A stretch of DNA of 64,000 bases, from sequence record MK327936.1; one strand, written 5' to 3'. Each line of letters opens with the position of its first letter. Position 1 is the first letter of the stretch. Of this stretch, positions 10,358-35,611 are shown piece after piece. Origin of the DNA: Escherichia phage vB_EcoM_G2540. The translations under genes and the position numbers were made by a program. The notes below the pieces were generated by a model. It made no database searches, was not told the DNA's origin, and saw only the letters and a list, made by a program, of their open reading frames with translations.

Positions 10358-10681
10358 TTAGTCTTCTATGATATCTCTATCATATCCAAGTGAAATGAGA
10401 GTTTCTTTGAAGTGTTTAATGTTCTTTTGTCTGGAATCATTAATGAAAATGACTGGATAACGAATGTTAAGAGATGTGAATCCAGCGCGTTTAGCAAGAG
10501 ATACAATCAGTTGACGATCATACTCAATCTTACCATTATTAGTAAGAACTTTATAAAAAGTAAAAGGAACATTGAGCTCCTTTAGAAGTTTTGTAACTGA
10601 TTGACATCCAGGACAACGACCTACTTCATCTGGAATTCCATAGACTTCAATCTTATTCTTTAAGTTCGAGTTTTGTTCCAC
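10358..10681 (-). CDS. nrdH: Glutaredoxin-like protein NrdH, probable GTG start
   Basis: CPGC redox motif in VYGIPDEVGRCPGCQS; AAGGAA Shine-Dalgarno 9 nt upstream of in-frame GTG at 10681; the longer ORF-track form overlaps the upstream gene. Confidence 0.6.
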   Translation of the reverse strand: MEQNSNLKNKIEVYGIPDEVGRCPGCQSVTKLLKELNVPFTFYKVLTNNGKIEYDRQLIVSLAKRAGFTSLNIRYPVIFINDSRQKNIKHFKETLISLGYDRDIIED

Positions 10682-29996: not shown

Positions 29997-30534
29997 TTAC
30001 TATTTCCAAAAGTTTATTATTTTTAAGGTAATTAGCCTTTTCTAGGACTTCAGAAGCATATTTAGAACCTGCTTTAACATTCCATCCCGAATTATAAGAG
30101 GATATTGCTTTTCTTATATCGCCCTTATGTATATTTAACCAATAAGAAAGTTCAATGTACGCCCAGGAAGCTGAATTGGACCGTTTATTCAACATTCTTT
30201 TTATTTCTGCATCGGTCATATTATAACCAAGTTCCTTAACTCTTGCTCGCATAGTAGGCAAATAATTTTGGAACATTCCGTAGGCGTGATGCTTTGGTTT
30301 AGATTTTAAATTAACTCCGCCAGAGCTTTCTTGCCATAAAATAGCAGCCATTATATGACCTAATCCGCTCTTATGGATATTTTTGTGTGTTTTATATTTT
30401 CCATCCTTAGAAAATTGTTCCCCGAATTGATACGCGTAACGCATGTTATCGAGTTGGACATTACTGAAAGTATGCTCGGAGCTATGTGCCATCATTGAAA
30501 TGGCCAATAGACCAGCGAGTAGTGCTTTTCTCAT
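29989..30534 (-). CDS. Secreted lytic-transglycosylase-like protein
   Basis: 181 aa; signal peptide; WQESSGG and YGMFQ motifs reminiscent of SLT domains. Confidence 0.45.
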   Translation of the reverse strand: MRKALLAGLLAISMMAHSSEHTFSNVQLDNMRYAYQFGEQFSKDGKYKTHKNIHKSGLGHIMAAILWQESSGGVNLKSKPKHHAYGMFQNYLPTMRARVKELGYNMTDAEIKRMLNKRSNSASWAYIELSYWLNIHKGDIRKAISSYNSGWNVKAGSKYASEVLEKANYLKNNKLLEIVND

Positions 30535-30541
30535 GCTTACC

Positions 30542-31003
30542 TCATTGAGTTTTAATTACTGCTTTAGAAGCCTTTCCTGGTAAACGACGACTGTTGATAA
30601 TTGCCATCCTGCATTGAAGTGACGGGTTTTTGAACTTCTCATTAGGCTTACAAACCGTAAATCCAAGCCAAAGATTTCCATCTGTGATTTCTAAACGTCC
30701 AGGACGATATTCAACCCCATCAATAAAATCCTCGTCAATGTCAGGACGCGGAGGCATACTCAGGAATTCATTAACTTCTAAAACATGGTCTTTTATTTTA
30801 TGGAATAATTCAAAAACATATGTCTCATCAATCTCCCGTTGAATTGCACGATCAAGAAGATGCTGAGAATATTTTAGATGAAACGATGAGACTCCTGCTG
30901 CTTTTGATGCCTCACGAATCTCATTGTTAATTTGACGAAACTCCGACTCAAAGTGACGACGAAGCTTATTTCGACGGATAAAAACTTCTGTATTGATAGT
31001 CAT
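30542..31003 (-). CDS. regB: Endoribonuclease RegB
   Basis: 153 aa; size and position match T4 RegB; early promoter upstream. Confidence 0.8.
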   Translation of the reverse strand: MTINTEVFIRRNKLRRHFESEFRQINNEIREASKAAGVSSFHLKYSQHLLDRAIQREIDETYVFELFHKIKDHVLEVNEFLSMPPRPDIDEDFIDGVEYRPGRLEITDGNLWLGFTVCKPNEKFKNPSLQCRMAIINSRRLPGKASKAVIKTQ

Positions 31004-31030
31004 GTTATTCTCCTCTTAACTGATAGAAAA

Positions 31031-31061
31031 ATTATACCACAGTCAAGAGGAAAAGTAAACA
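31031..31061 (-). promoter_or_regulatory. T4-type early promoter upstream of regB
   Basis: GTTTACT-18-TATAAT on minus strand. Confidence 0.5.
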
Positions 31062-31062
31062 G

Positions 31063-31650
31063 TTATTCTTTAAATCTAATCAATTTATTCATAGACTTTG
31101 AAACTTCTGCACGAACCTCATGTAAGTTTTTAAGCTGTTCAAGACGCTGCTCATAGTAAGCAATTTCATCTTCTTCGAGACAGTCCTGTGAATCTTCTTT
31201 AAGATAACGTGCATAGTCCTGAAAAGCTTTACGGACTACTTCCTGGAAGTCATCAAGACTTTGAATTTTCTTAGGAGCGGCAGATACACGACGAGGTGCA
31301 GTATAATACTCATAACCAAACCCTGCACTTAATTGAGCCATTAGTATTTTTCCTCTGGTTGGAATATCGCTGATGTCAGGAACTTCAGTATCTTTTATAC
31401 TAAACCCACGTTTTAAGCATTCCGTTATAATGTCTGATTGACGCTTTCGCAAAAATTCTAACTTATCGTAAAAGAACGTAACATGACCAGAGCCTAAAAT
31501 AAACTCGGAAGATATTTTAAAATCTTTAACCCGCTTACCATTTGCCACATGTTTACGAACTATACCAAAAACACGCGGCAATTCACGATACTCAGCCATA
31601 AGATGTTGGTCGGTCAGTTCAGAAACAAGTGTTAAATTGATACGAGTCAT
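31063..31650 (-). CDS. denV: Endonuclease V (pyrimidine-dimer glycosylase) homolog with extended divergent C-terminus
   Basis: [12 protein letters not shown]...[13 protein letters not shown] matches recalled T4 EndoV for about 100 aa; then diverges and continues to 195 aa. Confidence 0.7.
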
Positions 31651-31687
31651 AATTTCCTCCAAGTAGTTGATGAATGTATAGTATCAA

Positions 31688-31708: not shown

Positions 31709-31717
<9 letters not shown>
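31688..31717 (-). promoter_or_regulatory. T4-type early promoter upstream of denV
   Basis: GTTTACT-17-TACTAT then ACATTCATCAACTAC leader and GGAGGA. Confidence 0.55.
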
Positions 31718-32511
<794 letters not shown>

Positions 32512-32967
32512 TTAAAAGAGGCTGTTCATTATTCGGTAAAGTGAAGGACCCATCACATATTGCCACTGAGTACGAGGAATAAGAGCAAAAGCATCCATCT
32601 CTGGAATCATAATACCATCTTTATTTTCAAAATAAGACTCGCAATGGCAATTTCTAAACATCTCATGCTCTACTGGAATCGTATAATAAAACAGCTGTAA
32701 GTCTTTATTACTAGAATATTTAAATACACCTAGGTCTTCTAGAAGGTCTGGATTATAATTGCTAAAACCGGTCTCTTCTAAGCATTCTCTTCGTGCTGCA
32801 TCTAGTGCGCTCAAATCAGAATTTTCTACACGGCCTTTTGGAATATCCCAGCGATGTGCCATCATTCCAGGCTTACGAGAACCAGTAACCCGTCCCATGA
32901 ATAAATCTTTATCTTCTGTCATAAAGATAATACCAGCTGATAATGTTTTCATTTTAATTTCCTGCAT
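32512..32967 (-). CDS. nudE: Nudix hydrolase
   Basis: 151 aa; Nudix box region RRECLEETG. Confidence 0.8.
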   Translation of the reverse strand: MQEIKMKTLSAGIIFMTEDKDLFMGRVTGSRKPGMMAHRWDIPKGRVENSDLSALDAARRECLEETGFSNYNPDLLEDLGVFKYSSNKDLQLFYYTIPVEHEMFRNCHCESYFENKDGIMIPEMDAFALIPRTQWQYVMGPSLYRIMNSLF

Positions 32968-33437
32968 TCGGTGATAAAATTATTTAAATTTTGAGTATAT
33001 TTCTTTTCATCAAAAATCTTTTGCTGCCTACGTAAACGCCATGGCATTTCAATGAACGTGTACCATATCCCAGATAATATTGCTGCTGTAAAAATATTAA
33101 CAAGTATGGTTAAAATAATCCAATCTCCCGTTCTGTCTACTGGACTTTCTCCAAAGAAGCAAAATATAAATGATGTCACAGGAAAACTAATAATATACCA
33201 CAGAATCATAATCTTATCTGTGAACCAATCAGTGTTCGTTAATTTAGCGCGACCATTATGAATACACACGAATTTATCATCTGTTGCAGTAGATGGCTTA
33301 ACTGGTTGATATCCCATTCTAAACTCCCTAATCAGCAAATTTTTCATATCTTCGGAACAGCCATTCCAGTCAACTCTATCAACTGAAATGCCATCATCCC
33401 CATCATCTAAATCATACCAGCGAGTTTTTAAAATCAT
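32949..33437 (-). CDS. Two-TM membrane protein (tandem array member)
   Basis: 162 aa; two hydrophobic helices; C-terminal FITECRKLK. Confidence 0.45.
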   Translation of the reverse strand: MILKTRWYDLDDGDDGISVDRVDWNGCSEDMKNLLIREFRMGYQPVKPSTATDDKFVCIHNGRAKLTNTDWFTDKIMILWYIISFPVTSFIFCFFGESPVDRTGDWIILTILVNIFTAAILSGIWYTFIEMPWRLRRQQKIFDEKKYTQNLNNFITECRKLK

Positions 33438-33808
33438 TTGATTTTCCTACAATCATTCACGAATTCTTTCATTGATTCATTTTCAATATAAGACATGTAG
33501 TTATTATATTCTTTTAATTGTATTTTGTAATCCTTTTTTCTTTGCCAATTTATTTTAAAATTATCATAATGAAAATATAAAATAATACCAAAGAATGAAA
33601 ATAATGAAATCGCTATAGTATAATGAAGTTCACTCCAAACTTCTATTATATCTACTATACCGCTGACATTACTGCGGATGTTTAAAATAATACAATCAAT
33701 CATTAATCCAATAAGACTACCAGCAAGAGCTGCAGCCAACGCCACAGCAAAAATTAAAAATGACTCAGGAAGCGAATATTTGACTTTATTTAGTTTTGGC
33801 TTTTGCAT
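33434..33808 (-). CDS. Two-TM membrane protein (tandem array member)
   Basis: 124 aa; two hydrophobic helices; C-terminal FVNDCRKIK. Confidence 0.45.
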   Translation of the reverse strand: MQKPKLNKVKYSLPESFLIFAVALAAALAGSLIGLMIDCIILNIRSNVSGIVDIIEVWSELHYTIAISLFSFFGIILYFHYDNFKINWQRKKDYKIQLKEYNNYMSYIENESMKEFVNDCRKIK

Positions 33809-34182
33809 CGTGATTCCTTAACAAATTTCATAATTTCATCAAATTCATACGCAGCAAGTTTAAGCTGGTGTTCCTTTTTAATCTTTTCACACTGTGCTTT
33901 CCAATCACGTACGCGTTTACGATAATGTCTTCCTTGATACCAGTATCCTACCCAATTTACAGGTACTAATAAAAGTGGAACTATTAATGGAAGAATTAGC
34001 ATTAATACAAGTATTTCGCCAGAATCAATATCAGTCATAACATCTAAAACACCTCCAATAATCAATAGAATTACAAATGATATGAGTATAACAGGACCTA
34101 TTAATACATCAGTAGAAATTATCTGACGCTTTAATTCATACTTTAAGGGTTTACTTGGAAGATACATTGATGGCTTTGACAT
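33790..34182 (-). CDS. Two-TM membrane protein (tandem array member)
   Basis: 130 aa; two hydrophobic helices; C-terminal FVKESRCK. Confidence 0.45.
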   Translation of the reverse strand: MSKPSMYLPSKPLKYELKRQIISTDVLIGPVILISFVILLIIGGVLDVMTDIDSGEILVLMLILPLIVPLLLVPVNWVGYWYQGRHYRKRVRDWKAQCEKIKKEHQLKLAAYEFDEIMKFVKESRCKSQN

Positions 34183-34756
34183 ATTCTCTGCATTCCTTCA
34201 CAAATTTTTCTAGTAATAAATCGCTTTCAAAATTGGGATTTTCCACGAATTTATCAAAAAGATCATCAACAATAGTTAAGATATTCTTTTTACTAAGAAT
34301 ACGTTTATTTTCATGCTTCGTTTCAGAATCAACTATAAGAGTAAAGAAATATTTCTTTCCCTGAAATTTTACCGTAGTATCAATATAAAATAAATTTGAC
34401 TTTTGTAAATTACGTTTAAACCATGCGTCACTTAAACTATAAACGCCAAGATAATCATAATCGTCGTTTAAATAACAAACTGTCCATTCAGGAGAAATGA
34501 AATCAGTAAATTCAACATCAAAATCACACGTCAATGAATGAATTGATTCAATGCTTTTAATGAGTATTCCAGGACGTATTAAAGACTTTTTACCTTTATA
34601 AAATCCAGAAAGACTTTCATCAGTTTCATATGAAGACCCCCAATAGTAATTACGTCCTTCTGCCATACGTTTAAGAGCATTTAGTAATTGATCTGGAACA
34701 TCAACCTGTCTTTGGAACTCTTCAAACATTGAATTGAAATCACTTTGCATTTTCAT
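34151..34756 (-). CDS. Hypothetical soluble protein upstream of the membrane-protein array
   Basis: 201 aa; C-terminal FVKECREY; 32-nt overlap with next gene. Confidence 0.45.
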   Translation of the reverse strand: MKMQSDFNSMFEEFQRQVDVPDQLLNALKRMAEGRNYYWGSSYETDESLSGFYKGKKSLIRPGILIKSIESIHSLTCDFDVEFTDFISPEWTVCYLNDDYDYLGVYSLSDAWFKRNLQKSNLFYIDTTVKFQGKKYFFTLIVDSETKHENKRILSKKNILTIVDDLFDKFVENPNFESDLLLEKFVKECREYVKAINVSSK

Positions 34757-34776
34757 TCCTATTTACTCCAAGTAAT

Positions 34777-34792
34777 AGGGGCCGAAGCCCCT
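34777..34792 (-). terminator. Putative hairpin terminator (AGGGGC-TTCG-GCCCCT)
   Basis: Perfect stem with tetraloop; weak T-run. Confidence 0.35.
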
Positions 34793-34797
34793 TATCA

Positions 34798-35391
34798 TTA
34801 TTTCAGAGAATTAATGTATTCCTGAACATCGGCAGAGGTAGTTTCAACCCCAGAAATATTGCCATTAAAGGTTTCAACTCGAGCAAGAGTATCTTCAATA
34901 TCAACCTTAGTCAGTGCTGCAATTTCAACTACATCATCAGCAGTACTAATTCCGAGGGCATTCGCAGCACGAGTTTCACGGATATATTCCAATTTAACTG
35001 CAAGTTCTTGGCGAGCATCATCTAACTCAACTACTTTCTTGGCGATTTCAATTCGCATTTCAGCATAACCATCAGCTTTAGTAGTCAACTGCTCAGCTGT
35101 TCGACGATATAGTAAACCAAGTTTAGCATGCATTGTTACATCTTGACCTTCGGAAAGAAGCTTGCGAATTTCGCGCTCTTTTGATTCGGCTTGTCGATTC
35201 TTTTCGACAATAAGTTCACGAATACGTTTTTCTTCATTAATAGATTTAACGGAAGCAGTTTTTAGGTCTTTAATCTTATCAAGTAGTTTTGCTGCCGCAG
35301 CGGTATACTGCTCTTCAACAGATAGATTTTTAGCCATAGCAGAACCAAGTTTAGTGCGAATAAACTCAACAATTTTCTTCAGTGTGTTCAT
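34798..35391 (-). CDS. Coiled-coil protein
   Basis: 197 aa, predominantly helical/charged heptad-like sequence. Confidence 0.4.
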
Positions 35392-35434
35392 AGTATTTCC
35401 TTAGGTTAATTAAGATTTAAAATCCACGAGAGTA

Positions 35435-35611
35435 TTATACTCCGGATAGTTTGTAAACTATTTCAACATCGCCTTTTGCTGCTTTATAACCTTCAGCCCA
35501 AGATACAACCGAGTTTTTATCTGAAGATTCAAATTCTGGCATTGGGCTTTCGCCAATGTTCACGCAGTATGTTTCTTCATTTTCGTCAAACCAAATAATT
35601 AAAGTAGTCAT
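35435..35611 (-). CDS. Small ORF below the ORF-track cutoff
   Basis: My translation gives MTTLIIWFDENEETYCVNIGESPMPEF..., 58 aa, ATG at 35611. Confidence 0.3.
   Translation of the reverse strand: MTTLIIWFDENEETYCVNIGESPMPEFESSDKNSVVSWAEGYKAAKGDVEIVYKLSGV

Follow-up and report, generated by a model that had tools for sequence, protein, structure and literature searches.

The 64-kb window analysed here, from Escherichia phage vB_EcoM_G2540 (MK327936.1), carries four consecutive small genes that correspond to e.2, e.3, e.4 and e.5 of phage T4 and encode proteins with similar C-terminal peptides. Positions below are those of the window, and the block is read on the minus strand. The window belongs to a Tequatrovirus: bases 32400-35500 matched 644 phage records and shared 96% identity with phage Kha5h. 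The four open reading frames (ORFs) were found where a preliminary description of the sequence had placed them (32949-33437, 33434-33808, 33790-34182 and 34151-34756, encoding 162, 124, 130 and 201 aa, respectively), and were assigned to the T4 genes by synteny and identity. The gene order, e.6-e.5-e.4-e.3-e.2-nudE-e on one strand, is identical to that of T4, with e.2 to e.5 lying between e.6 and nudE/e. The region is an early gene block of a T4-like phage, running from e.5 through e.4, e.3 and e.2 to nudE, with the following features.

34777..34792, minus strand: GGGGCUUCGGCCCC hairpin between e.6 and e.5, at the upstream edge of the block (fold of the region, z = -1.9)
34151..34756, minus strand: e.5, soluble early protein of 201 aa with a predicted C-terminal helix carrying FVKECREY; first cistron of the block
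33790..34182, minus strand: e.4, predicted hairpin of 130 aa with two transmembrane (TM) helices, TM1 at about 34110-34036 and TM2 at about 34014-33946; basic helical tail ending in FVKESRCKSQN
33434..33808, minus strand: e.3, predicted two-TM hairpin of 124 aa, TM1 at about 33760-33704 and TM2 at about 33628-33566; ends in FVNDCRKIK
32949..33437, minus strand: e.2, intact, 162 aa, with a soluble N-terminal domain of about 75 aa, predicted TM1 at about 33215-33150 and TM2 at about 33131-33051; ends in FITECRKLK
32512..32952, minus strand: nudE (Nudix hydrolase), last cistron of the block (Pfam NUDIX, 1e-13)

Full-length matches were obtained to PHROG 2203 for e.2 (7e-79), PHROG 2330 for e.3 (2.3e-62), PHROG 2604 for e.4 (2e-70) and PHROG 2607 for e.5 (1.9e-107). 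Homologs of e.2, e.3 and e.4 were 80-98% identical; the identity of e.2 and e.3 to T4 was 82-87%, with matching lengths. Precomputed assignments place homologs of e.4 in PF26873 (Phage_T4_Y06O) and homologs of e.2 in PF26896. These homologs are 70-92% identical to the proteins here, which suggests the same membership for e.4 and e.2 themselves; the local copy of Pfam returned neither model. The GGGGCUUCGGCCCC hairpin is labelled a terminator in related phage records.

The T4 proteins are named Y06M/N/O/P in UniProt, and in the GenBank record of T4, e.2, e.3 and e.4 already carry the label 'conserved hypothetical, predicted membrane protein'. The genes, their order and their lengths are the same in T4, except that e.2 is intact here (162 aa) and frameshifted in T4 (102 aa). 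e.2 to e.5 are therefore T4 genes already known and annotated, though uncharacterised, and their layout is the usual one in this genome. What is new here is the shared terminal helix, the movement of the ribosome-binding sequence between registers, and the deletion junctions. No functional study of e.2-e.5 was found in the literature by gene and UniProt names, nor was any description of the shared tail, of paralogy, or of e.5 and the Mosigvirus gene RB69ORF133c (ORF133c) as members.

The C-terminal motif and the Shine-Dalgarno sequences

The protein encoded by e.2 ends in FITECRKLK, that of e.3 in FVNDCRKIK, that of e.4 in FVKESRCKSQN and that of e.5 in FVKECREYVKAINVSSK, each followed directly by the stop codon. 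All four endings quoted in the preliminary description were present, and they share the form F-[VI]-x-[DE]-[CS]-R. A six-frame search of the 64 kb with this pattern gave five matches, four of which are the consecutive C-termini of e.2-e.5; about 0.05 would be expected from the composition of long ORFs, a figure to be read with the fact that the pattern was set after the data were seen. The remaining match (position 10447) falls within an unrelated ORF, 23 residues short of its end, and was put down to chance.

Hydrophobic residues occupied positions -3, 0, +1 and +4 in all tails. These positions fall on one face of a helix, with the consensus hydrophobic(-3)-x-x-F-[IV]-x-[ED]-[C/x]-R. The motif was placed in a terminal helix by the AlphaFold2 model of e.4 and, weakly, by that of e.5. 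The e.4 model (predicted local distance difference test score, pLDDT, 64.5; helices 24-48, 54-105 and 111-128) was used for secondary structure alone. The single-sequence model of e.5 (pLDDT 40) was too poor for a fold search, and its C-terminal helix, residues 178-198, was predicted at low confidence.

Orthologs were compared from Tequatrovirus, Mosigvirus and the more distant metagenomic contig L024 and, for e.2, also from Dhakavirus, Gaprivervirus and Kanagawavirus. Identity between genera was 25% for e.2, 36% for e.3, 53% for e.4 and 47% for e.5, compared with 88% for e.6 and 62% for nudE. e.2 of Tequatrovirus and Mosigvirus, with their 25% overall identity, were nevertheless identical at all six residues of FITECR; the two e.3 proteins kept ENE..F..CRK. 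The L024 gene at the e.5 position had only LNRFIAECREYAKG in common with e.5. Between genera, the tail is an island of conservation in fast-evolving genes.

The cistrons of the block overlap or abut on the same strand, by 32 nt, 19 nt, ATGA and ATGA in order. At all four junctions, the best duplex with the anti-Shine-Dalgarno sequence before the downstream start fell within the tail codons. The motif codons and the Shine-Dalgarno (SD) sequences were as follows.

34187..34204, minus strand: e.5 motif codons TTT GTG AAG GAA TGC AGA; AAGGAA (34198-34193) is the SD for the e.4 start at 34182 (GAAGGAA, -5.7 kcal/mol, spacer 10)
33808..33825, minus strand: e.4 motif codons TTT GTT AAG GAA TCA CGA; AAGGAA (33819-33814) is the SD for e.3, whose ATG begins in the Arg codon at 33808 (UAAGGAA, -6.1 kcal/mol, spacer 5)
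33446..33463, minus strand: e.3 motif codons TTC GTG AAT GAT TGT AGG; AGG AAA (33448-33443) is the SD for the e.2 start at 33437 (UAGGAA, -4.2 kcal/mol, spacer 6)
32961..32978, minus strand: e.2 motif codons TTT ATC ACC GAA TGC AGG; AGG AAA (32963-32958) is the SD for the nudE start at 32952 (CAGGAA, -4.3 kcal/mol, spacer 6); holds TGCAGGAAA

The tail-borne SDs (-4.2 to -6.1 kcal/mol) were equal in strength to those of the non-overlapped starts of e.6 and e.5. At the e.5/e.4 junction (34151/34182), the codons AAG GAA for Lys-Glu form the SD for e.4, as had been described. The extension of this pattern to the other junctions held in part: the SD lies in tail codons everywhere, and the e.4/e.3 junction also uses Lys-Glu (AAG GAA), but e.3/e.2 and e.2/nudE use Arg-Lys (AGG AAA) instead.

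The start of nudE at 32952 has the SD CAGGAA and an ATGA overlap with the e.2 stop; an upstream ATG at 32967 has no SD. In the RefSeq record of T4, nudE is annotated from the upstream ATG without an SD (151 aa, MQEIKMK...). The ATG five codons downstream, with CAGGAA at a spacer of 6, gives a protein of 146 aa (MKTLSAG...), and is the start used by several RefSeq relatives.

No stable structure was found at the four junction start regions, which folded no better than shuffles (z = +0.36 to +1.54). This suggested that any coupling would work through overlap or reinitiation, and not through the unmasking of a hairpin. The arrangement resembles that of translationally coupled overlapping cistrons in its overlaps (32, 19, 4 and 4 nt) and in having the SD 5-10 nt before the start within the preceding coding sequence. 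It differs in that the start regions are unstructured and independent initiation is possible.

The preliminary description had taken the tail peptide to be at least partly imposed by coupling. Carried to its end, this idea makes the shared tail a by-product, with the same SD, spacer and start encoded at each junction. The presence of an SD within the tail codons at every junction agrees with it, as does the codon usage: AGG and AAG are rare in the window (5.2% of Arg and 21% of Lys codons, respectively), and the tails used them only where an SD is formed, with AGA, CGA, CGT or AAA elsewhere. On the other hand, an SD inside the upstream gene is the norm in this genome, being found at 58 of the 105 tight adjacent same-strand pairs in the window (from crude gene calls), and among those junctions only the upstream genes e.2-e.5 end in the motif. 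In addition, the similarity between the proteins reaches about 40 residues upstream of the motif.

The SD registers in 14 tails from six phage lineages were as follows.

AAG GAA: Tequatrovirus e.5 and e.4; Mosigvirus e.4 and e.3
AAG GAG GTT: e.4-like gene of L024
AGG AAN: Tequatrovirus e.3 and e.2; Mosigvirus e.2
GAG GAA: Dhakavirus and Gaprivervirus e.2
AAA GGG: Kanagawavirus e.2
CGA GGA, adjoining a non-SD AAA GAA: ORF133c of Mosigvirus
AAAGGGG, four codons past the motif: L024 gene at the e.5 position
ATG GAA, a weak SD only: Mosigvirus e.5

Part of the motif followed the register. Positions 3 and 4 (x and [ED]) were K-E, E-E or K-G where they carry the SD, versus T-E, N-D or S-D where the SD is in Arg-Lys, and in Kanagawavirus e.2 a change of Glu to Gly creates AAAGGG. 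These variations are as expected from a peptide shaped by its SD. The rest of the motif was not: Phe, Ile/Val, Cys (Ser, Ile or Val in e.4) and Arg were kept in all 14 tails despite the moving SD, even where it lies elsewhere or outside the motif altogether. These residues, and the hydrophobic one at -3, do not encode the SD, and the kept residues varied synonymously (TTT/TTC, TGC/TGT, AGA/AGG/CGA/CGT).

We interpreted the motif to be under protein-level selection, because its core persists with synonymous codons while the SD moves; the SD appears to be fitted in by codon choice and at the variable positions. Imposition by coupling thus accounts for which codons are used and for the residues that vary; it does not explain the core that is kept, namely Phe, Ile/Val, Cys, Arg and the residue at -3. 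As the sole cause of the tail it is already largely refuted, and as the principal one we consider it unlikely.

Relationships and predicted membrane architecture

Hydropathy was scanned by Kyte-Doolittle in 19-residue windows, with segments above 1.5 scored. Two TM-length segments were found in each of e.2 (residues 75-96 and 103-129), e.3 (17-35 and 61-81) and e.4 (about 25-49 and 57-79), with peaks of 1.8-3.0. No hydrophobic segment was found in e.5 (201 aa), where the Kyte-Doolittle maximum was 0.85. The last 45 residues contained 9-13 Lys and Arg. These results bear out the earlier reading of the three small ORFs as having two hydrophobic helices and a basic tail each.

In e.2, e.3 and e.4, the N-termini and the segments after TM2 are basic and the loops acidic, as read from the sequence. 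By the positive-inside rule, the three proteins are predicted to be two-TM hairpins with both ends in the cytoplasm. They would be small inner-membrane hairpins, with a short acidic periplasmic loop and a basic helical tail of about 45 residues in the cytoplasm.

Similarity was weak in pairwise comparison: e.3 and e.4 were colinear (E = 0.034), and e.2 and e.3 matched over TM2 and the tail (E = 0.006). The N-termini of e.3 and e.4 were also alike (MQKP.. and MSKP..), and e.3 gave a weak match to PHROG 2604, that of e.4. The e.4-like and e.3-like proteins of L024 gave reciprocal colinear BLASTP matches with e.3 and e.4 of Mosigvirus.

Profile comparison by hhalign became informative once the Mosigvirus and L024 sequences had joined the profiles, which then covered three lineages. 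e.3 and e.4 matched with 90% probability (E = 1.7e-6) over 40 columns of the cytoplasmic tail, and e.2 and ORF133c with 88% over 65 columns of the loop, TM2 and tail. The probability was 74% for e.3 and ORF133c and 64% for e.3 and e.2, while reversed-sequence controls gave at most 2.7%. The similarity extends about 40 residues beyond the motif. From these profiles we conclude that e.2, e.3, e.4 and RB69ORF133c are probably distant paralogues. The relation of e.5 to the others is through the terminal helix only.

RB69ORF133c of Mosigvirus encodes 101 aa with two TM helices and the tail ENFIKECRGK, and was present in about 150 records. A scan of IMG/VR with the octapeptide ENFIKECR returned Mosigvirus genes and three unrelated, non-terminal contexts; because of the latter, the octapeptide alone is not diagnostic. 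An unrelated viral protein of 115 aa on the IMG/VR contigs L021-L023, not a membrane protein, has the identical nonapeptide ENFIKECRG in mid-sequence (…AAQALENFIKECRGLDIKKKP…), which could be a coincidence or a helix motif that recurs.

The family is very narrow and confined to a few genera of Tevenvirinae. The e.4 profile gave six matches among 1.84 billion protein representatives, and a scan of IMG/VR for relatives of e.4 gave four loci. e.2, with orthologs in five genera, is the most widespread member and probably the oldest.

The same locus differs in its other genes. In Mosigvirus, Dhakavirus, Gaprivervirus and Kanagawavirus (contigs L015, 5033-5719; L025, 1743-2429; L026 and L027, 1719-2408), a conserved protein of 228 or 229 aa precedes e.2. 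It is like RB69ORF132c (…HHDDVPRPD…, ending in LEFPMEGW), and its last codons hold the e.2 SD (GGAGGG or GGAAGG). Between e.2 and nudE, Mosigvirus, Dhakavirus and Gaprivervirus have an acidic protein of 78-83 aa, and Kanagawavirus has one of 106 aa that seems unrelated to it. Both the 228/229-aa protein and the small ones after e.2 are absent from Tequatrovirus.

A second tandem array with a common C-terminal motif is inserted in Mosigvirus between e.3 and the rest of the locus (L003, 3231-4025; L011, 2857-3651). It consists of three ORFs of 101, 90 and 65 aa (RB69ORF139c/137c/136c), all ending in G-x-W-V-(S/A)-S-S-x-x-C. The first two TAA stops lead into GGAA(A)TCAT(T)ATG, in which the stop and GGAA make up the SD of the next gene.

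Deletions, fusions and the repeated junction

In phages ZN18, Ozark and T4_ev151, e.2 was lost exactly. Their e.3 ends in ...DCRKLK, a hybrid e.3/e.2 tail with the crossover in TGCAGGAAA, and nudE retains its SD and ATGA start. In UFV05 and UFV11, the N-terminal part of e.4 is fused in frame to the C-terminal part of e.2, the two being joined inside TM1. The UFV11 chimera (L004, 2501-2821; protein P0143; …LIGPV|TSFVF…), where e.3 is deleted, retains the two-TM architecture and was seen on five contigs.

Other isolates carry broken copies. In PTE-Eco05, e.4 is interrupted by a nonsense mutation and e.3 has lost an internal segment, and frameshifts were found in e.3 of pEK20, in e.5 of ZN18 and in e.2 of T4. 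The frameshifted T4 e.2 (L002/L005, record 67491-67960) has one TM helix in its 102 aa. The sequence for its TM2 and tail (…FITECRKLK) is still present, out of frame, in the 160-bp 'intergenic' stretch upstream of nudE; in X57093, an early T4 entry, the pieces appear as ORFs of 102 and 63 aa. e.2 was present in about 447 of 503 Tequatrovirus records (about 11% without it), and e.3 in 108 of 140 Mosigvirus records (about 23% without it). e.2 to e.5 are dispensable accessory genes, and clean deletions occur at the repeated junction.

These events raised the alternative that the repeated tail and junction are kept mainly as a DNA-level recombination joint, at which cassettes of accessory membrane genes could be gained, lost or exchanged with frame and downstream translation signals preserved. 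The precise e.2 deletions with their hybrid tail, the in-frame e.4/e.2 chimera and the frequent losses of e.2 and e.3 all fit this idea, and shuffling at short repeats has a precedent in T4-type phages (PMC2839356, PMC4122927). The precedent is provided by the PeSL cassettes, promoter/stem-loop repeats of hyperplastic regions (PMC2839356, PMC4122927). Like the junctions here, these are short repeats at gene boundaries and sites of insertion and deletion. They differ in being intergenic transcription signals, whereas the e.2-e.5 repeat is coding sequence and translation start region.

On the other hand, DNA identity from tail to tail was just about 9-16 nt and is eroded by synonymous changes, and the junction of the UFV chimera lies in TM1 and not at the tail. 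A single event in a common ancestor may lie behind all three deletion genomes, and recombination at an existing repeat is no proof of selection for that use. That the repeat is maintained chiefly for recombination therefore seemed to us very unlikely.

Expression and possible role

No late promoter or MotA box was found inside e.5-nudE. Internal promoters, an idea taken from annotations of phage Lutter, were rejected, as late and MotA-type promoters were absent and the sigma-70-like matches did not clearly exceed those in shuffled sequence. Two TATAAATA late promoters lie directly before gene e, downstream of nudE. An Rfam scan returned just one tRNA, outside the array.

The RNAs of e.2-e.6 and nudE fall in the early class during infection by T4, and all four e.2-e.5 proteins have been detected: e.4 and e.5 in the early, e.2 and nudE in the middle and e.3 in the late time class of proteins (PMC9697503, supplementary files 4 and 6). 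The products of e.2-e.5 are real early proteins that are not obviously made in lock-step.

The SD of e.5 contains GGAG (34766..34769, minus strand) and is the only start-proximal SD of the block with this motif, which is the one cut by T4 RegB. With regB itself intact in the window (30542-31003), a single RegB cut in the e.5 SD could down-regulate the head of the block.

In the region 30500-31662, the denV ORF encodes 199 aa in place of 138, or 195 aa when counted from the MTRINL start. Beyond about codon 105 it runs on into sequence that matches the regB/vs.1 region of other Tequatroviruses at 99.9% identity. It seems that vs.3-vs.8 were lost in a deletion that joined denV' to 'vs.1, and with them the C-terminal part of endonuclease V.

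The preliminary description had also named a role in lysis timing or superinfection exclusion as possible, from the neighbourhood of e and nudE, to which the membrane location can be added. T4 Imm is a small early inner-membrane protein of superinfection exclusion with two hydrophobic helices, and e.2-e.4 are likewise small, early and membrane-embedded with two hydrophobic helices. From general knowledge, then, they belong to the same broad class, and as accessory, fast-evolving genes (25-53% identity between genera versus 88% for e.6) they would suit such a role. No sequence or profile similarity links Imm to e.2-e.4, however, and Imm has no counterpart of the tail motif. To our knowledge, no exclusion phenotype is known for e.2-e.4.

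More broadly, e.2-e.5 showed no similarity to holin, antiholin, Imm or Sp families, and no model of Pfam, NCBIfam, PADLOC or the PHROG functions matched them. Sequence searches of Pfam, PADLOC, NCBIfam and PDB gave no functional lead and no PDB relative. Their RNAs are early and not late, gene e is under its own two late promoters, and adjacency, on which the proposal was based, weighs little functionally in T4 hyperplastic regions. Lysis timing accordingly found no support, and exclusion or another host interaction is possible only as for any early phage membrane protein. We regard a function of the array in either process as improbable.

The best explanation, which we consider probable, is that e.2-e.4 are paralogous membrane hairpins which share with e.5 a tail helix kept by selection on the protein, with the SDs fitted into it. 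Each tail, including the C-terminus of soluble e.5, would end in a short amphipathic helix. At the cytoplasmic face of the membrane, this helix would act in docking or assembly, linking these proteins or binding a common partner. Because the cistrons overlap or abut, the SD and start of the next gene would have to share the tail codons, and this appears to be met mainly by synonymous codons and the variable positions. Translation would be linked by proximity or reinitiation. The sequence repeated at the tails and junctions also acts as a microhomology, by which cassette genes are cleanly lost, and presumably gained, in frame.

Several points weigh against this explanation. Smith-Waterman comparisons between paralogues with local shuffles gave z mostly below 4, and single-genus hhalign profiles (effective number of sequences about 1.2) gave less than 10% probability. 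e.4 and e.2 were not detected directly by hhalign, which makes their link transitive, and homology of the TM parts is not proven by these comparisons. The topology was derived from hydropathy and charge only. The Cys is not universal: its position holds Ser, Ile or Val in e.4, where a Cys occurs two residues later in Tequatrovirus and Mosigvirus, and the L024 tail has no Cys after the motif. e.2 and e.3, often lost or broken in natural isolates, therefore cannot be obligatory subunits, and the differing time classes of the proteins are not suggestive of strict 1:1 co-production. The partner or complex of the docking helix, like the biological role, is putative.

A more specific form is that the helix is a common docking module, by which e.5 and the hairpins e.4, e.3, e.2 and ORF133c join one early membrane complex or compete for one host target, possibly via the Cys, with the same sequence doubling as translation start and recombination joint. 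We consider this form rather doubtful. If true, the array would be a plug-and-play cassette system, whose members can be added, deleted and fused without breaking the expression of the rest.

A partial likeness is found in the T4 internal proteins (IpI, IpII, IpIII and relatives), in which the N-terminal MKTYxEF is a capsid-targeting signal that is cleaved. They are likewise neighbouring, fast-evolving accessory genes with only a short terminal peptide strongly conserved. Their signal is N-terminal, cleaved and for capsid packaging, whereas the e.2-e.5 peptide is C-terminal and found on membrane and soluble early proteins. A small ORF with such a leader (31709-32005, MKTYSEFL) begins within the end of gene e, overlapping its stop, and adjoins the e.2-e.5 array region; it is annotated as ip5-like in some relatives.

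The tails illustrate clearly how selection can act in two layers on one set of codons: the peptide is conserved, and the SD shifts register by codon choice. They also correct an appealing but mostly wrong causal reading, in which the peptide is imposed by the SD. Natural clean deletions of e.2 fall at the repeated junction. Four or five orphan early genes of T4-type phages, including that of soluble e.5, are grouped by one C-terminal helix, which offers a testable handle on them in the form of a tail-dependent interaction.

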